Notes: a model not told the origin generated them from the letters alone. Positions 183 through 28,614 are shown, counted from the stretch's first letter. The stretch is 28,614 nucleotides of DNA from an uncultured Planctomycetia bacterium (GCA_964415105.1 CAYPYT010000002.1:1-28614), one strand, 5' to 3'. Program-made: numbers and translations.

Positions 183-3100
183 TTATACCGACATAAGAAG
201 TTTTTCCATTCTTTCATTGAGATTTTTCAAATCATTCGGATCCTTTATGAGAACCGGATCGAGAAGAAGAGTTAACAGGGTGGGATCTTTCTTTAGTTGC
301 TCTATTGTAACATCGATATCGGCAGTGTTATTCGTAAGAATATTACATATATTTTTAAACGCTAAATCATTATTGGCTAAGTAGGCGACACTTGCCGCGA
401 TTATGCCTCCTATATGAAAAAATCTTTCGTGACTTATTTTTCTTCTGTCGTAATCAATGAATATAACATGAGCGTTCTTAAGTTTTGATAAATTTTCTTG
501 AACATATTGTTCTTTGAACGGCAGAACAATAACTGTGTTATCATTATTTCCATCCGAGGTTAACGCGAAATCCACAAGTTCTTTTACCGATTTTTTTTCG
601 TCCGTTATGTTTCCAAAATCTATTTTATAACCCTTGTTTGATAAATGCGTACGTATTTTCTGCAAAATTTCTTTTTGTTCCCGCGAAACCGCGTATCCGC
701 TCCACATTTTTATTACGTAGTCATCCTTTGTTTGTTTTTCCACAGCTGTTTCAAGATTTCTGTGCAGTATTTCAAGTTTTACTCTTTCTTTCACCGCGGG
801 TATTTTTTCTTCCGGTATGGAATATCTGTCTAACGGACATTCCTTTCCTTTCAGACTGGTTTTTAGTTTGATATTGTAAATAGCTTCAAGATTTTTTTCG
901 GTTTCTTCGCGGGTAGAGCCACTCATGGCAGGGTTTATTCTGTAATGCTTAGGCTTACCTTTTACCGGCAATAAAATACCGATTTCCTTTAACATCCGAA
1001 CTTCTATATCCACCGTACTCGGCTTGTGCGATGTTCTAAGCGCGTATAAAGATTCTTTACTGAACTCTTCGAATTTAAAGTTTCCAAAACTAACGCGTAA
1101 TGCCTCGGCGGGCGAACCCGGCGGTAAGGATTTATTTATAGTTTTTTCTTTCATCAACTTTTTAAACTTTTCACTTCCATTATCTGTCAGTTCGAAATTA
1201 CCTCTGAACGGATTTACTCTCATTAACAGAACGGATATTAGATCTGCCATTTGTTTGTATCTTTCAGCTTTTTCAAATTCTTTGATAATCTTATCTGCCT
1301 GTTCTTGACCCATCATGCCGTATAATGCTTCTTTTCTAGATCTCGGAGGGTCTTCTTTCATTAGCCCTGTATTTAAGCTCCATCGCCCTGTATCCATATT
1401 GTTTTCAACAGAATCGGCCTCTTCTTTCAAATCCTCGATCAACGCTTCTATTTCTCCGACAGAACATTGAGACATATCTGAATCCTTTTTGATCCCCCTT
1501 TTTATCAACCCCGTCGCTTTTTCAAGAAGCAGCATATTATATATCCTCGCTATCACATTCCTCACTTTTATTACCTTTTCTTCTTTATGCCTTTTTTCCA
1601 AGATCGCTTTAATTTCTCTCCAATCTTTTTTTCTCATTTCTTCTAAAGAACATCCTATCGCCTCAGGTATATTTACATCTTCACCTGAATTCTTACTATT
1701 ATCCTGTATCGATTTTTGAGAAGTATCAGCCCATTCTAAAACGTCTCCAACAACCGTCTGTTTGTCCCGTTTACCCATATTTAATCTGCCAAACATGGCA
1801 TGTAAGAAGCCATTTTTTCTTTCATTATGATGGTCTATTACATCGCATATCGTCCTTTGTATCCCTGACGCCGGAAGATATTTTTTTCTGAACGCATTGC
1901 CGGCGGGTTTTTGGTCCTCTTCTGACCACTTTAGTATTACAATCTTGACAAAATTAAGCTTTGCTCTTTCATCTTCAACCGCGTTAAGTATCGCGATCCA
2001 CTCTTCCGGTATTGAAATCCCGCTATCAATTTTATCCAAAGCTTTCAGGCAATAGAACCCTTTCCACATCTCGTTTTCGTCAAAAGGAGATAGCGTTGTT
2101 ACTATTTCTCCCATCAAAAACGGTGCTAATCCTATAGACGGTCTTATTTCAGACATGTAAATCGCCGCTTTGTATTGGATTTCGGCAACGGGATCTTCTA
2201 ACGCTCCTAAAATAATCTCCAGATATTTGGGCTTATCTAATCTCGTTAAAACTTCAAGCGCTATCATACGAAACTTCGGATCTTTATTCTTCACTCCGCC
2301 TAAAACACTGGAAATATCTTCCTCATTAAGCGTTCTTACCCTGTCAGGAAATTCCATAAAAATATTGGCTTCATATATTTCTAACAATTCCTTTAATACG
2401 TCATTTCCGGTATTATCTTCTTTTATCCCGGGAGCCACCCATCCTCCATGAAAAATTGCCGCTTCTTTTTGTCCATCTTCATTTTCCATCACAAAAGTCG
2501 GCTCATAAATCTCTACTCTCCCTTCTGGAACTTTGGAATTGGGGATTATTTTTAACGTTAATAAACTTCTTCTCGTTTTCGAAAAATCCCTACTGCTGTT
2601 AAACGATATCGCGCCGTTCAGAAACATCAGCGCTTTTTCTTCCGTTAGTATTTTATTAATAAAAAACCGGCTGTAATATTTTGACGGATCGCTTAGATCA
2701 ATTACATTGAATCCTTCCTTTACCAATAAGTGAACATTTCTCAATATCTCCGGACTGTACAAGAATCTTCCGGGAAGAGCTATTTTTTCCAACCCTTCCT
2801 GTGATTTGTTGCCAAATATTTCTAAACTTGCCCCTTTTTCTTCAACCATTGTTATTTTTATCTTTCGAAACTGTTGTTTTGTTATTTTCGCGACACTATC
2901 CGCGAACAACAAACATTGATTCCTAAAACTATTTCGCTCTTCATTATTGAAACCTTGCATTGTTTCTTCTATTTCACAATCACCAAAATCGAATTGTTTT
3001 TTGTCCGTACGCGTCATTAATTGTTCTTCCCCAAATATAATTTCTAAATCGTCCGGACATGTTCCGATTATTCTTCCAAATATTTCCCTTATTTGCCGCT

Positions 3101-4442
3101 GATGCCGTTTCATTTCTTCCAGATAGCATGAGCCAATAGATCCATGCAGATTCTTTTGCGCTTCGATGCAATAGTCACCATGATAAAACGCGTATTTTTG
3201 ATCTTTATCAAGCGTTAACCAATCGGTATAACCACTCTCCTGCAAAACTTTTAATTCCCTTGGGGTTAACTTGGGATATTTTTTTAGCAATATTTCTATG
3301 ACTTCTATCTCTGCTAACTCATGAAAAATTGTTAATATCTGCTCTACAAAAGATCCCAGTGACATATTAATGTATGTATTCGCCGATTTAATCTCTCTGG
3401 TACTTTCATTAAATATAATTTTCGTTTCTCCTCTATGGCTTCTAAAAACATCGTCTTTTGTCCCAATATTTTCCATCACACAAAAAGTAAGATTGTATCT
3501 CTCTTTTGCATTTTTAAACGAGTCATTAGTTGCCATAAGCATTCTAAAGATAAGATCTAACAGCCGTTCAGTTAATCTCTTTGAGTCTTTAACCTTTTGC
3601 TCTCCGTTCAACATAAAAACAGCTTCCTCTTTCACAATTGAAGTAAATTCATCATAAATTCGAAATCGTTTTAAATTCTCTACATAAACTTCCGGCGAAA
3701 CCGGTCCAGTAACAAAATTCGCGACTTGGATAAATTCAAACTTATTATCAATCGCGGCAGTTATCAACCGCCTTCTTTCCTTTGAATCTTCGGGAGAAAT
3801 AAATAATCCGGTGTTAAAAAAATTGCGCCTATTGCTTTCGTTTTTTAATATCGGCTGAACCGTAAGATAAAAACGTGCTTCTTTTATTTGCTCATCCTGT
3901 TTTTTGTAATCTTCCTGTACAACAAAACCATTTTCCGCCATAAACATTATTTCTAATGCTTTGGCGATAATATCGTTCAGAATAAGTTCATCGGATAAAC
4001 GAGCAGGCTTTTTTCCTTTATGACAAAGGTCATAATACCTCTGTAACACTTTCTCGTTACCAAAGATCAGTTCCTTGATCCCATTGTACCTATATCTATT
4101 CCCGCTAATTCCGCCCCATCCTCTTTTTCCGTTTTGCATGATCTGCATCATCGCTTCAATATCTTCGTGAATAATTGACCTAACGAGTCTTAGCGGATTG
4201 TTGTATACTTCTTTGGAGACGAGATACTTACCGCTCTTATGCAAAATTGCTTCACTTCCATATAGCAGCAATAAAAGGCTCTGATTCATTGACGTAGCCA
4301 TAACGACCTGAGATTTGTCCAAAACCGCCCTAATCTCGCTTTTAACCAAAGGGTCTTGCGAAGCCATCCATGGCGCCAAAGCAAAACCCGTATTACTCGT
4401 TAAAAACACTAAAACTATTGTTATTGCAATTATTTTTCTCAT
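183..4442 (-). CDS. Large secreted modular protein (~1420 aa) with a HEAT-like repeat; function unknown
   Basis: ORF 183..4481. ATG at 4442 gives a signal-peptide-like start (MRKIIAITIVLVFLTSNTGFA-LAP). HEAT-like segment at ~2140-2310 (VLGGVKNKDPKFRMIALEVL...ALEDPVAEIQYKAA). Confidence 0.8.
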   Translation of the reverse strand: MRKIIAITIVLVFLTSNTGFALAPWMASQDPLVKSEIRAVLDKSQVVMATSMNQSLLLLLYGSEAILHKSGKYLVSKEVYNNPLRLVRSIIHEDIEAMMQIMQNGKRGWGGISGNRYRYNGIKELIFGNEKVLQRYYDLCHKGKKPARLSDELILNDIIAKALEIMFMAENGFVVQEDYKKQDEQIKEARFYLTVQPILKNESNRRNFFNTGLFISPEDSKERRRLITAAIDNKFEFIQVANFVTGPVSPEVYVENLKRFRIYDEFTSIVKEEAVFMLNGEQKVKDSKRLTERLLDLIFRMLMATNDSFKNAKERYNLTFCVMENIGTKDDVFRSHRGETKIIFNESTREIKSANTYINMSLGSFVEQILTIFHELAEIEVIEILLKKYPKLTPRELKVLQESGYTDWLTLDKDQKYAFYHGDYCIEAQKNLHGSIGSCYLEEMKRHQRQIREIFGRIIGTCPDDLEIIFGEEQLMTRTDKKQFDFGDCEIEETMQGFNNEERNSFRNQCLLFADSVAKITKQQFRKIKITMVEEKGASLEIFGNKSQEGLEKIALPGRFLYSPEILRNVHLLVKEGFNVIDLSDPSKYYSRFFINKILTEEKALMFLNGAISFNSSRDFSKTRRSLLTLKIIPNSKVPEGRVEIYEPTFVMENEDGQKEAAIFHGGWVAPGIKEDNTGNDVLKELLEIYEANIFMEFPDRVRTLNEEDISSVLGGVKNKDPKFRMIALEVLTRLDKPKYLEIILGALEDPVAEIQYKAAIYMSEIRPSIGLAPFLMGEIVTTLSPFDENEMWKGFYCLKALDKIDSGISIPEEWIAILNAVEDERAKLNFVKIVILKWSEEDQKPAGNAFRKKYLPASGIQRTICDVIDHHNERKNGFLHAMFGRLNMGKRDKQTVVGDVLEWADTSQKSIQDNSKNSGEDVNIPEAIGCSLEEMRKKDWREIKAILEKRHKEEKVIKVRNVIARIYNMLLLEKATGLIKRGIKKDSDMSQCSVGEIEALIEDLKEEADSVENNMDTGRWSLNTGLMKEDPPRSRKEALYGMMGQEQADKIIKEFEKAERYKQMADLISVLLMRVNPFRGNFELTDNGSEKFKKLMKEKTINKSLPPGSPAEALRVSFGNFKFEEFSKESLYALRTSHKPSTVDIEVRMLKEIGILLPVKGKPKHYRINPAMSGSTREETEKNLEAIYNIKLKTSLKGKECPLDRYSIPEEKIPAVKERVKLEILHRNLETAVEKQTKDDYVIKMWSGYAVSREQKEILQKIRTHLSNKGYKIDFGNITDEKKSVKELVDFALTSDGNNDNTVIVLPFKEQYVQENLSKLKNAHVIFIDYDRRKISHERFFHIGGIIAASVAYLANNDLAFKNICNILTNNTADIDVTIEQLKKDPTLLTLLLDPVLIKDPNDLKNLNERMEKLLMSV

Positions 4443-4623
4443 TATTTCTGATTTATTCCTTTTTTTACACTCTACCCGCATTCTTTGATACCGTCATCAA
4501 GATATAAAGCTTTTGTTATGCTAACCTTCATCCCCTTCGACTTACGTCCCTTTTCCCAGCCAACATTTATAACACAAATTAGACCAAAAAACAATCAAAA
4601 TATACCTTTTTTGAACCTTACAA

Positions 4624-6865: not shown

Positions 6866-6953
6866 TGGCGGAGGAAGTAGGATTTGAACCCACGGACCAT
6901 TACTGGTCAACGGTTTTCAAGACCGCCGCATTAAACCGCTCTGCCATTCCTCC
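6866..6953 (-). tRNA. tRNA-Ser (anticodon UGA)
   Basis: Cloverleaf with acceptor GGAGGAA/TTCCTCC, anticodon loop CTTGAAA, long variable arm, T-loop TTCAAAT, G73 and encoded CCA. Confidence 0.97.
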
Positions 6954-19253: not shown

Positions 19254-20567
19254 TCACTCGGAAAAATCCACAACCTGGACTTCATTTGTATCGTTTATCT
19301 TACTCATAAAATCATAAATTTTGTTATCAAAAATAATGTCGCTTCGCGCGATAGGTCTTTTTATATGTATACCTTCCAAAGTCCGGCACCGGCTTAACGC
19401 GACATATGTCTGGCCATGAGCAAAAGCTCCTCCTCCTATATCTATCATAACATCATCAAACGTCTGCCCTTGACTCTTATGTATAGTTATCGCCCATGCC
19501 AGTTTTATCGGGTATTGTTTGAAACTTCCGACAACTTCTTCCTCAATACGCCCGGTTTTTTTATTGTATGCATAGCGCACCTTTTCCCACGTCGTCTTGG
19601 GAACGTCACAAATTGTGTGATCTATGCTCACCCTGATTACTCCATCGGAAAGCTCCACTATTTCACAGATTGTCCCGTTCACCCATTGTTTTTTAGTGTC
19701 ATTTTTAAGCATGATCACCTGGGCGCCTGTTTTCAGCGTAATATCTTTTTCAGCAGGGTATTCCTTATCGTTAAATTCACCTTCCACGCTCGCGGAATAC
19801 ACAAATTCTTCGCGCGGAATTTGCGCCAAACGTTTTCGGTTAAGCGTATTCGCCACGTTATTCGTTGCCGTCAGAGTTACAACCCCTTCCGGAACATCAG
19901 ATATTTTCGAAGACACCCTTTCGTTTAAAACAGAAAGATCGTCCTTACTGCACTTATTTTCTCTAACCTTATTTAATAAATTTATAAACTTCTCATCTTT
20001 TTGCCTGTATATCTTGTTAAGAGAGATTACCCGCAGGCTAATTTCATCAAATACTTTCGCGCTGAAAAAATATGGGCTTTTATATTTTTGTTTAAGTATC
20101 TCTTTAAATTCCTGATTAACAACCGGCGGCAATTGAAAAAGATCGCCGAACAAGAGTATCCTCGCCCCGCCGAAAGGCTCATTATATGCATCCCGATTCA
20201 ACCTGAGAGAATAATCTATCCCGTCCAATAGATCCGCTCTTACCATAGACGCTTCATCAATAATGACAGCATCTATCCTCTCCATTAGATCACCCTTATT
20301 CAAACGTCTTATATGCTCTTCCAGAATCAATCTTGGCGGAAACCTAAAAAAAGAATGGATAGTTTGCCCCCGAACCTTGATCGCCGCCACCCCGGTCGGA
20401 GCCAATACCACCACATTCTTTTTGGTGTTCATCCTGAAATATTCCAATAAAGTCGACTTCCCTGTTCCCGCTTTTCCTGTAATCAATATATGTTCGCGAG
20501 AATTCTCCAAAAGCTCAAAAGCCTCCCGAAATTCATCACTAAACTCAAAATCCCCCGGAAGCCCCAT
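19254..20567 (-). CDS. Pif1-like superfamily 1B DNA helicase
   Basis: GKAGTGKS, APTGVAA, IDEASMV, GDLFQLPPV, QYPIKLAWAITIHKSQG and YVALSRC. Confidence 0.9.
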   Translation of the reverse strand: MGLPGDFEFSDEFREAFELLENSREHILITGKAGTGKSTLLEYFRMNTKKNVVVLAPTGVAAIKVRGQTIHSFFRFPPRLILEEHIRRLNKGDLMERIDAVIIDEASMVRADLLDGIDYSLRLNRDAYNEPFGGARILLFGDLFQLPPVVNQEFKEILKQKYKSPYFFSAKVFDEISLRVISLNKIYRQKDEKFINLLNKVRENKCSKDDLSVLNERVSSKISDVPEGVVTLTATNNVANTLNRKRLAQIPREEFVYSASVEGEFNDKEYPAEKDITLKTGAQVIMLKNDTKKQWVNGTICEIVELSDGVIRVSIDHTICDVPKTTWEKVRYAYNKKTGRIEEEVVGSFKQYPIKLAWAITIHKSQGQTFDDVMIDIGGGAFAHGQTYVALSRCRTLEGIHIKRPIARSDIIFDNKIYDFMSKINDTNEVQVVDFSE

Positions 20568-20605
20568 CCCCCGCCCACCTCCATTTTTTAAATAGGGACA
20601 GACAC

Positions 20606-21286
20606 CTATTTACCGTTTATTTTCCGCTGTCGCCCTCTCGGCTTTAATTTTAAGAACCGATTAAGTTTTTTTTCAAGCTTTTCTACGAAATTCTCGGCTC
20701 CCAACGGTCTTCCTTTTCTTGTATTTTCTCGTATTCGGTTTACTTCCTTTGCATCAGCTTGTACGCTTATAAATTTTTTCCATTCTTTTTGCTCATATCC
20801 CATATAATCGAAAAATTTATTTACTCCCAATTCATCACGCTCGTCCGCACCACAGTGCGTCTTCGCGCTTGACCATTCCCATAATTCCGGCTTCTCCACC
20901 ATTTTCGCCCTCACAGCGTTTTGTTCTATATAACGCGCGCAGGCTATAGTATGCCTTTCATCCATAACACATGAAAAAAATCGTCCCTGGAACAAATGAC
21001 CGGATGTCTCCATTTCCTTATTGTAATACTGTGAATATTTCATATGCGCATATTTAAAAACATTTGCCATTGAATCTTCTTCTTCGGGAACGGCTATAAA
21101 ATGAACGTGGTTCGACATAAGACTGTATGTTAATATCGTTAAATGATATTTATCGGCTTCTTTTTTTAGGAAGGATATATACTTTTTACGATCAGCGTCA
21201 TCGGAGAATATATTCTGCCGATAGTTTCCTCTTTGGGTGATGTGATGCGGATACCCCACAGCTACGACTCTTGCAATCCTTGGCAT
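20606..21286 (-). CDS. REP-associated tyrosine transposase (Y1 HUH, IS200/IS605 TnpA superfamily)
   Basis: MPR.AR....HH(I)TQRGN, HUH motif LMSNHVHF, GHLFQGRF.S, catalytic Tyr in RYIEQN, and C-terminal PRGR. Confidence 0.93.
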   Translation of the reverse strand: MPRIARVVAVGYPHHITQRGNYRQNIFSDDADRKKYISFLKKEADKYHLTILTYSLMSNHVHFIAVPEEEDSMANVFKYAHMKYSQYYNKEMETSGHLFQGRFFSCVMDERHTIACARYIEQNAVRAKMVEKPELWEWSSAKTHCGADERDELGVNKFFDYMGYEQKEWKKFISVQADAKEVNRIRENTRKGRPLGAENFVEKLEKKLNRFLKLKPRGRQRKINGK

Positions 21287-21344: not shown

Positions 21345-21755
21345 TTAAAAAACCATTTTGCTTTTTCTTTTGGGGATTTTTTTTGTTTCAACCTTTTCAT
21401 CTATGGATGGTACTTGGCAAATGCCCTCTACTAAGGCTCCTTCGTCAACGATTAAAACAGGTGTTTTGATTTTACCTGTCACTCTCGCCGACGCGGCGAG
21501 TTTTAGCCGCGTACTGCTAATAACATCTCCTGTCACTTTACCAAATATGTTTATGTCTTCTCCTTGAATTGTCTTAGCGTTTATTTCCGCCTTTTCACCG
21601 ATAGTTAAGGTTCCTTTTGTCTCCAAAGTACCTTTGAACTTGCTGTTTATCTTCAAATTAACCGGGGTGCTAAATTTAAGATCACCTGTCATTTCAGAAT
21701 CGATCTCGATAACTTTATCTTGCTCTTTTGATTTATTTCTTTTAAACATAAGCAC
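21345..21755 (-). CDS. Bactofilin (polymer-forming cytoskeletal protein)
   Basis: Beta-helix repeats (GDL.F...LKINSKFKG, LTIGEKA.I, I.GKV.GDV, A.V.GKI.TP.L.VDEGA..EG.C). Start at 21755 (GTG) or 21749 (ATG). Confidence 0.9.
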   Translation of the reverse strand: MLMFKRNKSKEQDKVIEIDSEMTGDLKFSTPVNLKINSKFKGTLETKGTLTIGEKAEINAKTIQGEDINIFGKVTGDVISSTRLKLAASARVTGKIKTPVLIVDEGALVEGICQVPSIDEKVETKKIPKRKSKMVF

Positions 21756-21907: not shown

Positions 21908-22591
21908 TTACACCGCGATATTTGAGACAAGATACGTTTCTATGGACTTAAACCGCTCTCTGTTTTTTTTGTAAAATGGAAGCAATTTGTGGTACTTTCT
22001 TACCTTCTCTACATCTTTTACCTCAATAATTTGAATGCTCTTGGGAAGCCACTTTTTAATGTTGTGGTAGGCGCCAATAAAAAGAATACCTTTCTCGCCA
22101 TGACATAAAGTCTTATCTATGCTTTTTGCAATAAATTTATCCCTTTTTCTCAAAAGCCTGTCTTTTGTAAGTGTGTACCTCGCGTACGCGAATAATTTAT
22201 TGATAATCGGCTTTTTTTGTATCAAGGCTTGCAGTTTGTCCCGCTCCTTTTTAACAAGATTGAAATCTTCGGTTTTAACCAAAATAGCGCCTTTAGAAAG
22301 AAGTTTTGACACTAATTTATAATTTTTACTTCCGGACTTTACTCCCTCATCAACGATTGCCCGCGCCACTTCACCTTCGGTCATCATTCCATCCTGATAT
22401 ACTTTTACATCTTCTATGTTCATTGAATCGAAATAATTTGAAATAACATTCCAAAAAACATCAACTGTTTTTCTGTGTCTCCACCAAAGCTCTTCTCCTA
22501 AATCAGCTATGGCTCGTTTTGTCATATCTTCCGCCAAAGAGCCGAGGTCCGCGTTTGTATGAATGATCGGGACATAAATTAGTGTTCGCAT
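21908..22591 (-). CDS. Hypothetical protein at the distal end of the gvp cluster; possible TraB/Tiki-like fold
   Basis: 227 aa with IIHT, YQDG, RDKFIAKSI and GILFIGAYH. The fold call is an inference. Confidence 0.7.
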   Translation of the reverse strand: MRTLIYVPIIHTNADLGSLAEDMTKRAIADLGEELWWRHRKTVDVFWNVISNYFDSMNIEDVKVYQDGMMTEGEVARAIVDEGVKSGSKNYKLVSKLLSKGAILVKTEDFNLVKKERDKLQALIQKKPIINKLFAYARYTLTKDRLLRKRDKFIAKSIDKTLCHGEKGILFIGAYHNIKKWLPKSIQIIEVKDVEKVRKYHKLLPFYKKNRERFKSIETYLVSNIAV

Positions 22592-22605: not shown

Positions 22606-22899
22606 TTATTTTACTTTTATCTTTTGCTCCAGCCGTTCCATCCTTTTTTCAAGCGCTGTTGTTTCTTTTTCCTTCGCTTTTGACGATAAATATGGATCCT
22701 GCTGCCACCAATTTATTCCCATCTCCATCGCTTTGTCAACGGAGGCAACAAGAAGCCGTATCTTAATGTTAAGTAGATCAATGTCGGCAAGCTGGATTTT
22801 TATATCTCCTGCTATTACAATTCCCTTATCCAATACCCGCTCTAAAATATCCGCGAGATTAGTGGCCTGATTCGCGTGCATCATTTTTGTTTCACCCAT
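22606..22899 (-). CDS. gvpJ: Gas vesicle protein, GvpJ-like (GvpA/J/S family)
   Basis: LADILERVLDKGIVIAGDI...LL.IKIRLLVASVDKA.EMGINWWQQDPYLS. Confidence 0.88.
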   Translation of the reverse strand: MGETKMMHANQATNLADILERVLDKGIVIAGDIKIQLADIDLLNIKIRLLVASVDKAMEMGINWWQQDPYLSSKAKEKETTALEKRMERLEQKIKVK

Positions 22900-22914
22900 A
22901 AAACTTCCCCCTTC

Positions 22915-23196
22915 TTACTCTGTTAATTCTTTTGCCTTTATGACCAGGTTCGCTACTTTTTCGCGTAATCGCGCGAGGACATGACACTCCATGCAATTGG
23001 ATTTTTCACTGCTGTAATCCGGACAGGAAAGAAGCACTTCGACTTCTTTTAGAATTTCTTCAGCCAATTTCACTTTCTCGTGTATCACTTTGGTATTATT
23101 AATTTCGCGCGTTAAATCTTTTATTATTGGTTCTTGTTTTTGAAATATCTGACAACATATTTTGGGAGGCTCTTCATTCATGCTTGCTCCTTTCAC
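22915..23196 (-). CDS. Cys-rich small hypothetical protein within the gvp cluster
   Basis: 93 aa with CC near the N-terminus and C-x9-CxxCH. Start overlaps the gvpK stop (ATGA). Confidence 0.7.
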   Translation of the reverse strand: MKGASMNEEPPKICCQIFQKQEPIIKDLTREINNTKVIHEKVKLAEEILKEVEVLLSCPDYSSEKSNCMECHVLARLREKVANLVIKAKELTE

Positions 23197-23534
23197 ATCA
23201 AATCCCCTAAAGGCCCTAAATTTATATTTAGCTCTTCGTCCTTAACTCCGAATATATCTTTCAACTCTTTCATCTTATTATCTATTTGCATAAAGGCCTC
23301 ACCGATACTTTCTATCTTCTCGCCCGAAAGCGAACCGCCGTCCATTCTTCTAATGGCCTGTTTTTCCAAGAGTTTTCTGATCAACTCAATAAGCGTAAGA
23401 ACCAACTTCGCTAAACCTTTTTCCACATTCTTCGGGTCGATGTTAATTCTTTCAACATCAGAGCCTTCTACTTCGTCCGGATCTTTAACAATTATTCCCG
23501 CGGATGTTCTATTCATTTTAAGCTGACTCCTCAT
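23193..23534 (-). CDS. gvpK: Gas vesicle protein GvpK
   Basis: RINIDP.NVEKGLAKLVLT.IELIR.LLE.QAIRR and LNINLGPLG. Start may be ATG 23516. Confidence 0.92.
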   Translation of the reverse strand: MRSQLKMNRTSAGIIVKDPDEVEGSDVERINIDPKNVEKGLAKLVLTLIELIRKLLEKQAIRRMDGGSLSGEKIESIGEAFMQIDNKMKELKDIFGVKDEELNINLGPLGDLM

Positions 23535-23733
23535 TGGCGCCTGAGATCGGCGCTCCTCGATAACGTTCCATAGTTTCCACTGAACTAAGCATTACCCTTA
23601 ACCCGATATATATAAGATCTACATCAGCTACAGAAATCACAATATCTCCTGAGGCGATTACACCTTTATCTAGGGCTACGTCTAAGATCTTTAAAAGTGT
23701 TACATCTTTTGATTTTGTAATAGCATCAGCCAT
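23518..23733 (-). CDS. Gas vesicle protein, GvpA/J/S family (GvpS-like)
   Basis: VTLL.ILD..LDKGV...GDIVISVADVDLIYIGLRVMLSSVETM. Confidence 0.85.
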   Translation of the reverse strand: MADAITKSKDVTLLKILDVALDKGVIASGDIVISVADVDLIYIGLRVMLSSVETMERYRGAPISGANEESA

Positions 23734-23751
23734 TTGTGCCTTTCTCTTTTC

Positions 23752-24549
23752 TCATTGGGTCCCACAAAAATTATAAGGCGGCCAGACCCCGGTACAATCG
23801 AAGATTAGCCCTTTATCCGCGTATTTATCCTTAAGACTCGTCAGGATATTTTCAAACTCTTTTATCCGTTTGCTGTTTATCAATAACGCGACGTTTAAAA
23901 CCATATCTTCTTTTTTTTCTGTCACTTCTTTGGGGAGCAGTTTATTAAGCCTACTATCCACAGCCGTCCTTTTTAATCTTTCAAAACAGTCTTTCATGTA
24001 TTCATCAATTTTTTCTTCCATAACATTTTTTATGATTTCATCCTTTTTCTTTTTCAAAAAATATGCTTTGCCCTTGCCGGCAGAGGTTATCTCTCTGTCT
24101 TTTTCTTTGATCAATTCGTTTTCCGCACAAAGAACGTCTTTAAAAAATTCACTGTTACGATATATCTTGAGACCCCATTCCTCTTTGCCATCCAAGCCCG
24201 CCAACACAGCTTTAAACTCGAGATTGTTCGTTTTAAGCAGTTTTTCTACATTCGCTTCCTTTTCAAAAACCGTTCCGAACTTAAAAGGGAGAACCGTCTG
24301 ATCCTTCATGATCTCTTCTATTACCTTTTCATGAAGCCGGGTATTTTTCTCCACCCAATCCATGTCGGTCAAATTCTTTTTTTGGCTATCTTCGCTAAAA
24401 TCATTGGGCAAAACCCTGCTGACAACCGCGTAAGTTCCACGAAAGTAAACGGGATAAACCCTAAGTCCCATTTCTTCAAAATTACCTCGACTCGGCTTTG
24501 CCTTAGTGACACAATATAAGTAAATAAGTGTTTTTTCTTCTGTCTTCAT
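23752..24549 (-). CDS. GvpL/GvpF family gas vesicle protein
   Basis: YLYCV, HE.VIE, VLPFKFGTVF, EEWGLKIY, LNVALL and WPPYNF. Confidence 0.9.
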   Translation of the reverse strand: MKTEEKTLIYLYCVTKAKPSRGNFEEMGLRVYPVYFRGTYAVVSRVLPNDFSEDSQKKNLTDMDWVEKNTRLHEKVIEEIMKDQTVLPFKFGTVFEKEANVEKLLKTNNLEFKAVLAGLDGKEEWGLKIYRNSEFFKDVLCAENELIKEKDREITSAGKGKAYFLKKKKDEIIKNVMEEKIDEYMKDCFERLKRTAVDSRLNKLLPKEVTEKKEDMVLNVALLINSKRIKEFENILTSLKDKYADKGLIFDCTGVWPPYNFCGTQ

Positions 24550-24590
24550 ATGTTATACCTACGTTTTAACAAAATTATCCAGCCGGCTTA

Positions 24591-24836
24591 TTATCCTTTG
24601 CGTTCATAAGAATCAATTTCTAAATTATCATTCAGCTTAACCACATAAATATTCCTGTCCTGAACCTTAGTCGACAGGCCGAGGGATTTTATAAACGAGC
24701 TCTCTTCGTAAGCCTCAGCTTCGCTCTCCCAGCCATCATCGACTTTTGAGGCCTTAATCACTTTTACATCCTTGACATTGAGAGTTTTTTTCAAAAATTC
24801 CACGACTGTTTTTTTTGTGTCTTCAATATTTGCCAT
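24591..24836 (-). CDS. gvpO: Gas vesicle protein, GvpO/GvpR-like
   Basis: 81 aa with GW..E.E.YEE and Y.VKL...LEI.SYER; located inside the gvp cluster. Confidence 0.65.
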   Translation of the reverse strand: MANIEDTKKTVVEFLKKTLNVKDVKVIKASKVDDGWESEAEAYEESSFIKSLGLSTKVQDRNIYVVKLNDNLEIDSYERKG

Positions 24837-24857
24837 TTCCGCCCCCCCTTAAATTTT

Positions 24858-25094
24858 TTAAGTTAAACCCTTCGACTCCCTAATAGCATCCAAGCGCTCT
24901 AAAAGTTCTTTTTCCAGGACGTTATATTCCTTTTCATTTATTTCATCCATTTCAAACCTTAGTTGCGCCCGCATAAGTTCTTCTTTCACGAGCCCTTCGT
25001 CGGACATCTCTTTTTCCATTATATCGTTAACCTTTTTTCCGATCCAGATCACGCCGTTTAACGGCGCGAGCAGTATATCGTCGAGTAAAAACAT
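24858..25094 (-). CDS. gvpG: Gas vesicle protein GvpG
   Basis: MFLLDDILLAPL.GV.WI and L..AQLRFE..EI.E.EY..LE.ELLERL. Confidence 0.9.
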   Translation of the reverse strand: MFLLDDILLAPLNGVIWIGKKVNDIMEKEMSDEGLVKEELMRAQLRFEMDEINEKEYNVLEKELLERLDAIRESKGLT

Positions 25095-25096
25095 CT

Positions 25097-25864
25097 TTAA
25101 TACCTTCCTGTCTCGATTACCAGATTAACAAAATTAAACGGCGGCAGTATTCCTACATATTTAAACTTTATTTTATCGCCATATCGCGCGTCAAGCGCTT
25201 GGACTCTTTGGTCAAACTCCGGCTCATTATCTTCGGGTACTAAAAAGGCGGCGTTTATGATCATCCTTTCACCGTAAGGAGTGTTGACCTTCGTATCTTG
25301 CGCCAAAGGTGAGAGCGTATTTAAGATCTCATCCTTGTGAATATCTTTCTCTTTCTGCAGGGCCGCTTCGACCTTCCTGCCGATTTCAACACGCAGATAG
25401 TAAGTTTTTCCCGAGGGCTCAGACGATATCGCCTCTTTAAGCTTCCTGATGTCCTCGTATTTTTCCAATATCTCTTTGTATATTATCTCTTCGTTAAACA
25501 TCGCTTTAATCGCGAACTCTTTTTTGCCCCTGATTTTATCCAGCAGATCTTTAAATTTATCGTACTCTTTTTCCAGTATCTTCTTAACCATCTCTTCGTT
25601 TTCGGCGATCGTTACGAATCTTACCGGCAGAACCGTATATTCTTTCATCACTTCCTCAATTGCTCTTTCATGGGCAAACATATTTTCGCTTGAGATAGGA
25701 TATTTTTTAATCGGAGAATTACTGACTACAGCCGCGATGCCGTTAAAACAAATTGTACGCACTTCATCCTGTCTGCCTCCGATACCCAGCGGACCAAAGG
25801 ATTGAGTTTCATTCGATTCGATTATACAGTATATGTACTTGCCTTCTTTTATGATTACATCCAT
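25097..25864 (-). CDS. GvpL/GvpF family gas vesicle protein
   Basis: GKYIYCI, AHERAIEEVM, VLPVRF, INAAFLV and LPPFNFV. Confidence 0.9.
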   Translation of the reverse strand: MDVIIKEGKYIYCIIESNETQSFGPLGIGGRQDEVRTICFNGIAAVVSNSPIKKYPISSENMFAHERAIEEVMKEYTVLPVRFVTIAENEEMVKKILEKEYDKFKDLLDKIRGKKEFAIKAMFNEEIIYKEILEKYEDIRKLKEAISSEPSGKTYYLRVEIGRKVEAALQKEKDIHKDEILNTLSPLAQDTKVNTPYGERMIINAAFLVPEDNEPEFDQRVQALDARYGDKIKFKYVGILPPFNFVNLVIETGRY

Positions 25865-26635
25865 TTATTTTTCCCACTCTTCAGGATAAATAACAATGTT
25901 GACAAAATTAAAAACAGGCAGAGGGCCGACATACATAAACTTTATCCTCTCCTTGTATTTTTCGCCCAGATCATCCGTTATGTTATCAAATTCTTTTTCT
26001 CTGCCTTTATCTACCAAAAAGGCGGCATTCATAAACATTTCGTCGCCAATAGTCGTGTTAAGCTTAAAATCAAAGACCGTTCTTCTCAGCGCGTCAACGA
26101 TCTCTTCGGTCTCCTCCTTTTTCTTCTTTTCCAAGACCTTCTCCACCATTTTGCCAATTTCCATTTTGGCCTGAATATTTTTATTATTTTTGCCGTTCTG
26201 AATATCCTCTTTTTTTCTTTTGATCGCTTTATCCTCATCCACGATTTCTTTGAAGATTACATCCATATTCTTCCATGCACCTTTAAGTCCTAACTCTATT
26301 TTGTGATCCACATCACGTAACGCGTTCTTAAATTCTCTTTCTCTTCTGCCAAGAAGATTTCTTATCTCATCGGCGCTTGAGGCGATGGTCCCGAACCTGA
26401 CCGGAAGCACGCTGTCAAATTCCTTCATCACTTCCTCAATCACCCTTTCATGAGCAAGCATATTCTCCCGATTAACGATAAATTTAGTTATAGGATGACT
26501 ACTCACAACCATGCTCAGGTCATTATGACCGATAGTCAGAACATCGTCACCCCTTGAACCTATTCCTTTAAGCCCAAAGTGCCTTTCCTGTCTTGCGGCA
26601 ATAACACAATAAATATATTTTCCTTCACTCTCCAT
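25865..26635 (-). CDS. GvpL/GvpF family gas vesicle protein
   Basis: GKYIYCV, AHERVIEEVM, VLPVRFGTIA, NAAFLV and GPLPVFNFV. Paralog of its downstream neighbour. Confidence 0.9.
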   Translation of the reverse strand: MESEGKYIYCVIAARQERHFGLKGIGSRGDDVLTIGHNDLSMVVSSHPITKFIVNRENMLAHERVIEEVMKEFDSVLPVRFGTIASSADEIRNLLGRREREFKNALRDVDHKIELGLKGAWKNMDVIFKEIVDEDKAIKRKKEDIQNGKNNKNIQAKMEIGKMVEKVLEKKKKEETEEIVDALRRTVFDFKLNTTIGDEMFMNAAFLVDKGREKEFDNITDDLGEKYKERIKFMYVGPLPVFNFVNIVIYPEEWEK

Positions 26636-27708
26636 TATTCCTTCACCTTTACTAAAATTGAACTTTTTTGAAAATCCCCTTCCTTAAACGAACAACTTTC
26701 ACCCTGACAATATTCCAATAAGGCTTTATGAGCGCGGCCAGCATCATCAAATTCTTTTTCCGCGGTATGGCTTCCCGGATTTTTATCGGGATGCGAAGAA
26801 ACGGCTTTTACATGATACGCCTTTTTTATATCTTCTTTGACCGCGGATTCATTTAAAAGACCTAATTTTTCCTTAGCCCAAACAATCTCTTCGAATTCCA
26901 GCTTCTTTACCTCTAAGGCATAAAAGCTGTACGGCGGAAGGGGACCAACACATCTAAAATTTACTTTCTCATTAAACTTATCATTTAACTCTTCTACTTT
27001 TTTGTCAAAGTCTCCCCGCTTATCTTTGTCTATTAGAAAGGCGGCATTGACCAGCATTTTATCATCCATAAGTTCGTGGGTTTTAAAATCTACGCAAAAT
27101 GTTTTTAAGGTATCCTGTATTTCTTTGGCAATATTATCTCTTTTTTTATCCAAAGTCTTTTTGAGCATAAAGCCCGCCTTCATTTGATCCTCCGCGGTAA
27201 TCGCTTTGGGGTTACTCAAAAGTTTTTCTTTAAACTCTTTTATCTCTTTTTCTTCCCCTGCCTCTTTAATAATGGAATCAAAATCACTCCATGTGCCGGC
27301 AATGTCTATTTCTATTTTATCTTTTATTTTCGTAAAAATTTCTTTTATGAGATTATATCCTTTGATTAGAACGTCCCTGACTTCATCTTCATCACGCGCG
27401 AATGTCCCGAATTGCATGGGAATAATTGTAACTTGCGTAGTCATGACTTTTTCAATAACCGTTTGATGACTAATCAACAGTCTTGATAGAACGTCCTTGC
27501 TCATACGCGTAGGGTTTATTATTTCAGAGTCTCTTACCAAAGCCGCGATATCCTGATAGACAACCGTATATGCCATGTTAGATTCACTTTCTTCTAACCC
27601 GGCGCGGCAGACCTTACCCGCGCCTGCTTGAGAAGGATCTGAAAGAAGACCCTTCGGAATGGAAAGATGCAGACTTGTGTTCGAATTTAAAATCCCATAA
27701 ATATACAT
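26635..27708 (-). CDS. GvpL/GvpF family protein fused to a C-terminal J-domain
   Basis: GvpF/L motifs (IIPMQFGT, NAAFLI, GPLPPYSF), then AKEKLGL...DIKKAYH......HPDKNP...KEFD...AHKAL with an intact HPD motif. Confidence 0.88.
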   Translation of the reverse strand: MYIYGILNSNTSLHLSIPKGLLSDPSQAGAGKVCRAGLEESESNMAYTVVYQDIAALVRDSEIINPTRMSKDVLSRLLISHQTVIEKVMTTQVTIIPMQFGTFARDEDEVRDVLIKGYNLIKEIFTKIKDKIEIDIAGTWSDFDSIIKEAGEEKEIKEFKEKLLSNPKAITAEDQMKAGFMLKKTLDKKRDNIAKEIQDTLKTFCVDFKTHELMDDKMLVNAAFLIDKDKRGDFDKKVEELNDKFNEKVNFRCVGPLPPYSFYALEVKKLEFEEIVWAKEKLGLLNESAVKEDIKKAYHVKAVSSHPDKNPGSHTAEKEFDDAGRAHKALLEYCQGESCSFKEGDFQKSSILVKVKE

Positions 27709-27736
27709 TTCTTGCCTTTCTATGATATTCCCCTCA

Positions 27737-27863
27737 TGTCATTGCGAGCCCCGCTCGAACGAAGGGGGAGGGCAAAACAATCTCTGCACGTACAATATTG
27801 CGACAACTACCGCGCGGGCGTGCCAAAATCGTTTCGGCTGATTTTGTCAGCCTCGCAATGACA
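27737..27863. repeat. 127-bp palindromic miniature element with TGTCATTGCGAG termini (similar to Rickettsia palindromic elements)
   Basis: Perfect 12-bp terminal inverted repeats TGTCATTGCGAG / CTCGCAATGACA, internal CAATCTC motif and CAAAATC/GATTTTG hairpin. Confidence 0.7.
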
Positions 27864-27892
27864 ATGGCAAAAAAAACTCCCAATTACTGCTA

Positions 27893-27976
27893 TTACGGCA
27901 CTTTTGGTTTTTTCTTAAAAATACCGCCAAAAAACTTCTTAATCCCTCCAACTAAACCCTTGATTAATTTGAACAT
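27893..27976 (-). CDS. Putative 27-aa cationic amphipathic peptide
   Basis: ATG 1 nt after the cdc48 stop, with GGAGG 9 nt upstream; MFKLIKGLVGGIKKFFGGIFKKKPKVP*. Confidence 0.55.
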   Translation of the reverse strand: MFKLIKGLVGGIKKFFGGIFKKKPKVP

Positions 27977-27977
27977 G

Positions 27978-28613
27978 TTATTCAGCCTCCTTTCTTTTTG
28001 TGCCTCTGGCGCCCGCTAATTCCAAAGCTTTTTCAAAATGACTCCCCGTGATCTTTAAATCCGTATGAACCGTTTCTGTTCCTCTACGCTCAATATATTC
28101 TCTTATTGCTATCATGGAAGCCTTCCTGCATATAAATTCGATGTCCGAGCCTACTTTTCCTTCAGTTTTTCCTGCTAATTCTTTGAAATTTACTTCCCTG
28201 GTCAATGGTTTGTTCTTAGTGTGTATCCTAAATATCTCTTCTCTGGTCTTCTCGTCAGGTTTCCTCAGTTCAAATAAAATATCGAACCTGCCCGAGCGTA
28301 ATATAGCCGGGTCAACCATATCAAGCCTGTTGGTAGCCGCTATGACGACAACCCCCTTCAATTCTTCTATTCCATCCATCTCCGTCAGAAATTGACTTAT
28401 CACCCGTTCTGTTACATGGGCGTCGGTAGAGCTCGAGCCGCGTCTCGGGACAACGCTGTCTATCTCGTCAAAAAAAAGAATCGTGGGAGAAGCCTGTTTC
28501 GCTATCTTAAAAACCTCGCGGATCGCCCTTTCACTTTCGCCTACATACTTGGATACAAGCGCCGGCCCTTTCACCGAGATGAAGTTAACCCCGCTTTCAG
28601 TGGCGATCGCTTT
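27978..28613 (-). CDS. CDC48/p97(VAT)-family AAA+ ATPase, C-terminal D2 part (5' end outside the window)
   Basis: KAIATE..VNFISVKGP.L.SKYVGESERAIRE.F, Walker B FFDEIDS, SRH ATNRLD..DPA.LR.GRFD. The frame is open to the window edge. Confidence 0.92.
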   Translation of the reverse strand, partial: KAIATESGVNFISVKGPALVSKYVGESERAIREVFKIAKQASPTILFFDEIDSVVPRRGSSSTDAHVTERVISQFLTEMDGIEELKGVVVIAATNRLDMVDPAILRSGRFDILFELRKPDEKTREEIFRIHTKNKPLTREVNFKELAGKTEGKVGSDIEFICRKASMIAIREYIERRGTETVHTDLKITGSHFEKALELAGARGTKRKEAE

Positions 28614-28614
28614 A

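Follow-up and report, generated by a model that had tools for sequence, protein, structure and literature searches.

Gene content of the gas vesicle locus

The window analysed here is one whole contig of 28,614 nucleotides (nt) in the assembly of an uncultured Planctomycetia bacterium (GCA_964415105.1, CAYPYT010000002.1:1-28614; contig C2), and its right-hand part carries a gas vesicle (gvp) gene cluster that includes a Cdc48/VAT-type ATPase and a protein in which a J-domain is fused to a GvpF/L domain (GvpF/L::J). The cluster genes in the window all lie on the minus strand, from 28613 to 21908, and are read leftwards from the right edge. Matches to Pfam and NCBIfam models recover the co-oriented gvp run of the original prediction for this DNA, with the same genes in the same order, and domain matches establish that the ATPase and the J-domain fusion are, as it proposed, built into the cluster. 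The tight coupling that it also described is seen in genes that are packed or overlap throughout, and is broken in one place by a 269-nt spacer between cdc48 and gvpF/L::J. The source assembly comprises 1.435 Mb in 208 contigs, with an estimated completeness of 86.8%; a run-level search of public data found the window DNA in lake-water metagenomes. Gas vesicles are flotation organelles with a protein wall. Lake water is a habitat where buoyancy makes sense, and in this uncultured organism, represented by a metagenome-assembled genome (MAG), gas vesicles are predicted from the genes. The two window genes at the centre of this study are:

27978..28613, minus strand: C-terminal 211 amino acids (aa) of Cdc48, comprising the D2 AAA domain, lid and tail (Pfam AAA, E = 1.4e-34; AAA_lid_3); truncated on its 5' side where the contig stops
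26635..27708, minus strand: gvpF/L::J, with GvpF/L at residues 1-263 and the J-domain at residues 286-330 (nt 26719-26853)

Reconstruction of the cluster from three contigs

A profile search of the window's own genome located a third Gas_vesicle-family gene on contig C152 and the genome's only CDC48_N domain on contig C135, which is 4,071 nt long and carries its genes on the minus strand. The features of these two contigs, in reading order, are:

C152:1538-1753: gvpA (NF006874 GvpA, 130 bits; cut-off 100)
C152:1917-2684 and 2727-3440, plus strand: two paralogous helical-repeat proteins of ~240-255 aa, directly after gvpA
C135, minus strand: DnaJ-type CxxCxGxG zinc-finger protein, first on this contig in reading order
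C135:2490-3464, minus strand: gvpN, for a MoxR-like AAA+ ATPase (TIGR02640, 340.8 bits; equivalog cut-off 266.8)
C135, minus strand: hsp20 (NF041800, 141.3 bits; cut-off 140)
C135:1231-1494, minus strand: arsA/get3 remnant, 87 aa in frame, made up of P-loop residues 1-32 and the last ~50 residues
C135:1-1080, minus strand: N-D1 part of Cdc48, first 360 aa (CDC48_N, CDC48_2, AAA D1), running off the contig start

The contigs are ordered C152, C135, a gap of ~0.46 kb and the window. C152 and C135 overlap by 55 nt in reverse complement, between the end of the former and the far end of the latter. No exact overlap was found between the window end and the start of C135, and this join is made through the homology of the two Cdc48 pieces and through public contigs that extend beyond the window end. 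C135 ends inside the D1 domain of cdc48 and the window begins inside D2, in the same orientation and as consecutive parts of one Cdc48 (positions 3-350 and 505-708 of TIGR01243). The spacing between the two matches is ~456 nt in every relative, as measured by tblastn on the relative loci, and contigs of 447 and 518 nt in the source samples extend beyond window base 28614. The unassembled gap accounts for some 152 aa of Cdc48, among them the D2 Walker A motif. We consider it probable that the window holds the downstream two thirds of one large gvp cluster that the assembly has split over three contigs.

The full gene order is gvpA, the two helical-repeat proteins, the DnaJ-type zinc-finger protein, a 114-aa protein, gvpN, a 101-aa protein, hsp20, arsA/get3 and cdc48, continuing with a 27-aa peptide, gvpF/L::J, two further gvpF/L genes, gvpG, a gvpO-like gene, another gvpF/L, a gvpM/S-like gene, gvpK, a four-cysteine (4-Cys) protein, gvpJ and a protein with a putative Tiki/ChaN-like fold. 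The three genes that were to be sought upstream, gvpA, gvpN and hsp20, are all present on C152 and C135. The placement of gvpA and gvpN beyond the window edge was correct. No Pfam GvpC match was found in the cluster, the helical-repeat proteins included. These two proteins match each other (E = 2e-10) and, weakly, apolipoprotein-like families, and keep their position in relatives; they may be functional stand-ins for GvpC with a role on the outer vesicle surface. The 101-aa and 114-aa proteins have no significant Pfam or NCBIfam match. At the place of the arsA/get3 remnant, relatives encode a 317-aa one-domain Get3/ArsA protein (for example L028:6904-7857; TIGR00345, 293 bits), and the 87-aa form reflects either a natural internal deletion or assembly collapse.

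Domain architecture of the Cdc48/VAT-type ATPase

The two pieces of the ATPase score 420.8 and 249.4 bits against TIGR01243, a model whose cut-off of 802.65 bits applies to the whole protein; an intact orthologue from an Omnitrophota relative (locus L028), which is 82-85% identical over both pieces, scores 949.1 bits. The C135 piece matches CDC48_N (94.4 bits) and CDC48_2 (45.5 bits). Among solved structures, the best relative of the intact orthologue is VAT (PDB 5g4f; 757 bits over residues 3-702), and that of the window's D2 piece is VAT D2 (residues 519-690).

The D1 domain on C135 has the Walker A motif GPPGTGKT, the Walker B motif IIFIDE and the pore loop KFYG, while the D2 domain in the window has the Walker B motif ILFFDE and the pore loop KYVG; the corresponding loops of VAT are KYYG and KWVG. 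It is because both of its rings have aromatic loops that VAT can thread substrates independently of ubiquitin adaptors; the D1 loop of p97 has no such residues. The window's Cdc48 ends in ...GTKRKEAE and is without the HbYX motif, which docks archaeal Cdc48 on the 20S proteasome and is a feature of archaeal Cdc48/VAT rather than of the whole family. A search of the 87%-complete genome for Proteasome-family genes (PF00227) found none.

Synteny and distribution of gvp-linked Cdc48

Relatives of GvpF/L::J were collected from 38 loci in a one-genome-per-species collection, and the proteins of the reconstructed cluster were placed on these loci by tblastn. Thirty-six of the loci are informative, having at least about 600 nt upstream of GvpF/L::J, and in 32 of the 36 cdc48 lies directly upstream of the fusion gene, with the end of D2 12-448 nt before it. 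The 32 loci span 18 NCBI phylum labels, which for MAGs can be wrong. A lack of cdc48-gvp synteny elsewhere had been named as grounds for giving up the original prediction; the survey finds the opposite. Most of the GvpF/L::J loci also have hsp20, gvpN and gvpA upstream. The longer ones read gvpA, two helical-repeat proteins, zinc finger, gvpN, 101-aa protein, zinc finger, hsp20, arsA and cdc48, followed by gvpF/L::J, two gvpF/L genes, gvpG, the GvpO-like gene, gvpF/L, the gvpM/S-like gene, gvpK, the 4-Cys protein, gvpJ and the 227-aa protein that also ends the cluster in the window. Both gvpN and cdc48 are present in all relative loci that have cdc48 and a full 10 kb upstream of gvpF/L::J.

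A check independent of the fusion was made on 400 other genomes of the window's phylum, in which related genomes are not independent samples. CDC48_N exceeds its cut-off in 11 of these genomes and GvpF/L in 14, with both in nine; in eight of the nine the two lie less than 5 kb apart on one contig, and in the two genomes with CDC48_N only it sits at a contig end. A genome of the same genus in the collection was found to have neither gvp nor CDC48_N, so the distribution is patchy. This spread, wide over 18 phylum labels yet absent from a same-genus genome, is consistent with the entire package having moved from lineage to lineage.

No protein of the set is better conserved than Cdc48, whose copies in the relative loci are 60-88% identical to the pieces from the window's genome (tblastn). 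A FastTree phylogeny was built from 26 full-length gvp-linked Cdc48s together with the 98 nearest representatives, 650-830 aa long, of clusters at 50% identity. In this tree all 26 fall on one side of a branch with an SH-like support of 96; the rows of the tree were grouped by the counted feature, and genomic context is known for few of the 98 representatives. Members of the gvp-linked clade are at most ~57% identical to the nearest other representatives. One near representative (53% identity) has no gvp neighbours, and a second lies on a contig too short to tell. Judged by domain matches, gene order and tree, this Cdc48 is a VAT-like N-D1-D2 bacterial lineage that accompanies gvp clusters, GvpN included, in many phyla, and it is very probably a dedicated gvp component.

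The GvpF/L::J fusion protein

The fusion matches Pfam GvpL_GvpF (E = 1.3e-54) and DnaJ (37.7 bits; cut-off 27.8). The HPD motif of its J-domain, at residues 306-308 (codons 26785-26793), is kept in all 30 intact orthologues. As an Hsp70 partner the genome offers one DnaK (905.7 bits), which adjoins a canonical DnaJ on contig C49.

A complex of the GvpF/L part (residues 1-275) with GvpA was modelled. It scored 0.37, against 0.01 for the best control, which the tool rates as weak support: the tool's mark is reached by 51 of 78 solved complexes and 2 of 108 mismatches, and at scores of 0.60 or less only 5 of the 78 solved complexes passed, along with all four mismatches that did so. The modelled interface places GvpA residues 54-70 against residues 144-186 of the fusion. 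Binding of GvpF to GvpA is reported for Halobacterium (PMC7688916). The model agrees with, and does not prove, a role in which the fusion would bring DnaK to the shell subunits.

Other gvp genes and uncharacterised members

The remaining cluster genes in the window, all on the minus strand, are:

27893..27976, minus strand: 27-aa cationic amphipathic micro-ORF (open reading frame), net charge +8, with its ATG 1 nt after the cdc48 stop
25865..26635, minus strand: gvpF/L paralogue 2, 256 aa (Pfam GvpL_GvpF, 5.2e-62); its start overlaps the stop of the fusion gene
25097..25864, minus strand: gvpF/L paralogue 3, 255 aa (Pfam GvpL_GvpF, 2.9e-70)
24858..25094, minus strand: gvpG, 78 aa (Pfam GvpG, 1.5e-17, 64 bits; cut-off 30.6)
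24591..24836, minus strand: GvpO-like protein, 81 aa, conserved
23752..24549, minus strand: gvpF/L paralogue 4, 265 aa (Pfam GvpL_GvpF, 7.8e-59)
23518..23733, minus strand: GvpM/S-like GvpA-family protein, 71 aa (Pfam Gas_vesicle, 46.1 bits)
23193..23534, minus strand: gvpK, 113 aa (Pfam GvpK, 6.2e-34), overlapping the preceding gene by 17 nt
22915..23196, minus strand: 4-Cys helical protein, 93 aa, with invariant C15, C58, C68 and C71
22606..22899, minus strand: GvpJ-like GvpA-family protein, 97 aa (Pfam Gas_vesicle, 61.9 bits)
21908..22591, minus strand: tail gene, 227 aa, the last conserved gene of the cluster, just outside the interval originally predicted

The accessory core of GvpF/L, GvpG, GvpK and GvpJ/M-type proteins lies over the Pfam gathering scores inside the window. 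Finer assignments are closer calls: paralogue 2 is nearer to the cyanobacterial GvpF model than to GvpL, under both cut-offs, and paralogue 4 is the most GvpL-like, its best match being the NCBIfam GvpL model, under its cut-off. The 71-aa and 97-aa GvpA-family proteins have GvpM and GvpJ, respectively, as their best NCBIfam models, in each case under the cut-off. The 81-aa protein scores 12.7 bits (E = 0.13) against PF05800 GvpO, under the gathering cut-off of 25 bits; GvpO is the commonest weak match in 14 of 15 of its orthologues (best E = 8.5e-5), and a PDB profile search with the family found nothing. It is probably a divergent protein of the GvpO/GvpR type and is best called GvpO-like. 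No GvpD/GvpE-type regulators were found in the cluster. In the Omnitrophota relative, two extra ORFs of 198 and 349 aa lie between the second and third gvpF/L (L028:11725-13367, plus strand); they have no counterpart in the window.

The 27-aa micro-ORF is the amphipathic peptide of the original prediction. It occurs once in the window's genome and has homologues with the core IKGLxxxIKKFFxGIFKKK at the same place in 11 other loci, and its helical hydrophobic moment is 0.53, compared with 0.22 +/- 0.11 for shuffled sequences; its conservation marks it as a real micro-protein. We rejected as a gene a 49-aa ORF at 27734-27883 (minus strand), which has no relative in the 38 loci. The spacer between cdc48 and gvpF/L::J contains no known RNA by Rfam gathering scores, the sole match in the window being a tRNA at 6869-6953. 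Within the spacer, a 127-nt stretch (27737-27863) is flanked by a perfect 12-nt inverted repeat, TGTCATTGCGAG / CTCGCAATGACA. This 12-mer has only three occurrences in the 1.43-Mb assembly, the third at C152:1388, within a nested palindrome ~150 nt upstream of gvpA; one repeat arm stands in a different context in a contig from another lake sample. The 12-mer could be a REP/MITE-like (repetitive extragenic palindrome or miniature inverted-repeat transposable) element or a shared regulatory site.

The 4-Cys protein has no Pfam or NCBIfam match and is a conserved cluster member, with orthologues at the same place in 11-12 loci. Orthologues of the tail gene stand directly after gvpJ in 13-14 loci. 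The 227-aa tail protein has no significant Pfam or NCBIfam match, and its structure was modelled with a predicted local distance difference test (pLDDT) score of 89. An exhaustive VIA search with this model gave ChaN (2g5g) as the best match, at a Z-score of 8.8, which is the tool's noise limit (161 residues; root mean square deviation 4.2 Å), followed by HopBA1, the erythromycin esterase EreC and RRSP at Z 5-6. Matches in AFDB were weak, to TraB/GumN and ChaN entries (E = 2e-3), and Foldseek against the PDB returned nothing below E = 0.08. Invariant residues of the family are H11, D15, H39, QDG66-68, E108, E116, RD150-151 and H176; of these, H11, E108/E116, R150 and H176 can be set beside the superfamily signature of an N-terminal xxH, a central acidic residue and Arg, and a C-terminal GxxH, with fold scores at the noise limit. 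The model suggests a Tiki/TraB/ChaN/erythromycin-esterase-like fold and a putative hydrolase.

Genes flanking the cluster

Downstream of the cluster lie a bactofilin, an IS200-like transposase, a PIF1-type helicase, a two-component system and chromosomal genes (seryl-tRNA synthetase, CorA, archease). The bactofilin (21345-21755, minus strand) lies 150 nt downstream of the last conserved cluster gene, and in one relative only a bactofilin is also found a few kb downstream of the cluster (L030:20562-20951); it may or may not be a member of the gas vesicle system, for instance in positioning. The IS200-like Y1 transposase and the PIF1-type helicase (19254-21286, minus strand) directly flank the gvp cluster. 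This flank, together with the same-genus genome without gvp or cdc48, is consistent with a cluster that is acquired or lost whole, as a mobile block. Elsewhere in the window, a 1432-aa ORF (183-4481, minus strand) matches no Pfam family at E 1e-4 or better.

A possible proteostasis relay and its alternatives

The gvp cluster contains GvpN, a small heat shock protein (sHsp), a Cdc48 of a gvp-specific clade and a GvpF/L::J protein with an intact HPD motif. We propose that these proteins could form a private proteostasis relay that keeps the very hydrophobic shell proteins of the GvpA family competent for assembly. Hsp20, joined in relatives by the Get3/ArsA-type ATPase, would act as a holdase for the shell proteins; the GvpF/L domain of the fusion would bind the client, and its J-domain would switch the housekeeping DnaK onto it. 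The Cdc48 hexamer would then thread and unfold shell subunits that have aggregated or been assembled wrongly, making them available for assembly again, or, alternatively, would strip accessory factors from growing vesicles, while GvpN would retain its usual role in vesicle growth. The chance that Cdc48 unfolds or disaggregates Gvp proteins in the course of assembly seems to us close to even, if somewhat short of it. A broader reading, which we put forward tentatively and rate at rather less than even, is that a horizontally spreading Cdc48/VAT lineage is integral to and required for gas vesicle biogenesis in a large proportion of the uncultured bacteria of plankton and sediments, where with GvpF/L::J, DnaK and the sHsp it would extract and refold GvpA-family subunits, and where the 27-aa peptide would serve as its adaptor or as a tether to the vesicle surface or membrane.

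Several observations weigh against this relay. The substrate of Cdc48, its direction (assembly or disassembly) and its adaptor are not readable from sequence. The model systems of Halobacterium, Anabaena, Bacillus megaterium and Serratia build vesicles without Cdc48, so the module is auxiliary or lineage-specific. The cdc48 gene is missing upstream of GvpF/L::J in 4 of the 36 informative loci, and 5 of the 14 gvp-bearing genomes of the phylum sample, several of them fragmentary, are without CDC48_N. In the window's own genome cdc48 is not in one assembled piece and its D2 Walker A is unseen; the complex model supports the GvpF/L-GvpA contact weakly, with an uncertain fold for GvpA; and no RNA runs containing the window stretch were found among the public runs. 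The genome also encodes a ClpB-like Hsp100 of 859 aa (contig C7), so that a second disaggregase is not obviously needed; by the same token, Cdc48 is not merely a substitute for an absent disaggregase.

The original prediction set the cluster apart from model systems that rely on GvpN and suggested a different assembly or recycling route, which can be read as the p97/VAT-type unfoldase taking the place of GvpN. The window itself, which has no gvpN, is in keeping with this idea, but the upstream contig contradicts it: a bona fide gvpN, over its equivalog cut-off, lies ~1.4 kb upstream of cdc48 on C135, accompanied by hsp20, and gvpN and cdc48 occur together in all the relative loci with cdc48 and a full 10 kb upstream. 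Because gvpN stands upstream in the same cluster, Cdc48 is an addition to the GvpN route and not a substitute for it, and replacement is scarcely credible. It is also very improbable that Cdc48 serves the cell at large as a housekeeping unfoldase, or that its gene is a passenger, and that it stands beside gvp by chance. Cdc48-family ATPases do have many substrates in archaea and eukaryotes, and the IS200-like transposase and PIF1 helicase at the cluster border make rearrangement plausible. Against chance stand the constant placement of cdc48, which 32 of 36 loci, with 18 phylum labels among them, have between hsp20/arsA and gvpF/L::J, the single clade formed by the gvp-linked Cdc48s, and the distribution within the phylum, where CDC48_N occurs in 11 of 400 genomes, nine of them with gvp, and a same-genus genome has neither.

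A role in turnover or regulation is harder to set aside, and we regard it as unlikely while giving it some weight. Here Cdc48 would take apart vesicles that have collapsed or are in excess, so that buoyancy falls or shell protein is recycled, or would remove or unfold a Gvp regulator or scaffold, and it might hand its substrates over to a hydrolase such as the Tiki/ChaN-fold tail protein. Dismantling of collapsed vesicles is equally compatible with the sequence. VAT, the best solved relative, and the Cdc48 family are segregases, enzymes that extract subunits from stable assemblies; the last gene of the cluster encodes a conserved probable hydrolase, and the absence of GvpD/GvpE-type regulators from it is a further point on this side. 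The tail gene, on the other hand, encodes no chambered protease and shows no visible docking motif, the Cdc48 tail is without HbYX in a genome where no Proteasome-family gene was found, and the position of cdc48 between hsp20 and the J-domain fusion points to folding help and not to destruction.

The proposed relay bears on the question of how the extremely hydrophobic GvpA stays soluble and enters the growing 3-nm shell. By bundling an sHsp, a Get3-type ATPase, a Cdc48 unfoldase and a J-domain on a GvpA-binding fold, the cluster supplies testable helper-gene candidates. Heterologous expression of gas vesicles as ultrasound reporter genes is limited by proteotoxic stress (PMC12848028), and if the relay is real such helper genes could ease their use as acoustic reporters. 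The findings also point to a bacterial, proteasome-independent job for a Cdc48/VAT enzyme, and an integral Cdc48 lineage, if confirmed, would be the first organelle-specific bacterial Cdc48 system.

Comparison with known systems

We compared the cluster with those of Halobacterium (gvpACNO/DEFGHIJKLM), Anabaena/Microcystis (gvpA-C-N-J-K-F-G-V-W), Bacillus megaterium (gvpAPQBRNFGLSKJTU) and Serratia ATCC 39006. Common to the model clusters and the present one are GvpA, GvpN, GvpF/L, GvpG, GvpK, GvpA paralogues (J/M/S) and a GvpO-like protein, in co-oriented genes. An sHsp-type member, here hsp20, is also known in some model clusters, GvpH and GvpQ being sHsp-like. We know of no model cluster with a Cdc48/VAT ATPase, a GvpF/L-fused J-domain, DnaJ-type zinc-finger proteins, the 27-aa peptide, or the 4-Cys or Tiki/ChaN-fold proteins.

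Castillo & Saier 2010 (PMC2963123) described the nearest known cluster type, in Pelodictyon luteolum, Polaribacter irgensii and Geobacter uraniireducens, where hsp20 and a homologue of arsA stand inside the gvp cluster along with four to five copies of GvpL/F. Neither Hsp20 and ArsA nor several GvpF/L paralogues are thus new to gvp clusters, and the four GvpF/L paralogues that the original prediction took to be unusual have precedents in the four and five copies of Pelodictyon and Polaribacter (PMC2963123). Neither Cdc48 nor a J-domain fusion is named in that paper. The gvp-linked ArsAs that it describes have two domains and about 600 aa, whereas the relatives examined here have a 317-aa one-domain protein and the window's genome the 87-aa remnant. 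In the literature that we searched, which mostly excludes subscription journals, we found no description of Cdc48 or a J-domain fusion in a gvp cluster. Papers on gas vesicles and CDC48 are haloarchaeal or unrelated by title and abstract, the combination of gas vesicle, gvpN and J-domain returned nothing, and that of gas vesicle with Hsp70 and Hsp20 returned only the ArsA paper and a Halobacterium transcriptome. MAG papers that mention gvp genes, one of them also hsp20, do not mention Cdc48.

With VAT of Thermoplasma acidophilum (PDB 5g4f, 5g4g, 5vc7) the gvp-linked Cdc48 shares the architecture of an N domain (double-psi barrel and beta-clam) followed by D1 and D2, and both have aromatic pore loops in both rings. 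Unlike VAT and archaeal Cdc48, the gvp-linked protein is bacterial, is tied to gvp clusters and forms its own clade, and the window copy lacks HbYX. The set of proteins also follows the logic of the disaggregation system of sHsp, Hsp70/J-protein and Hsp100 (ClpB), with its holdase, client-targeting J-domain and threading ring ATPase. Hsp20, the J-domain fusion and Cdc48 may likewise co-operate. Unlike in the ClpB system, the ring here is of the Cdc48 type, the J-domain is fused to a client-specific GvpF/L, and the parts stand in one organelle operon.

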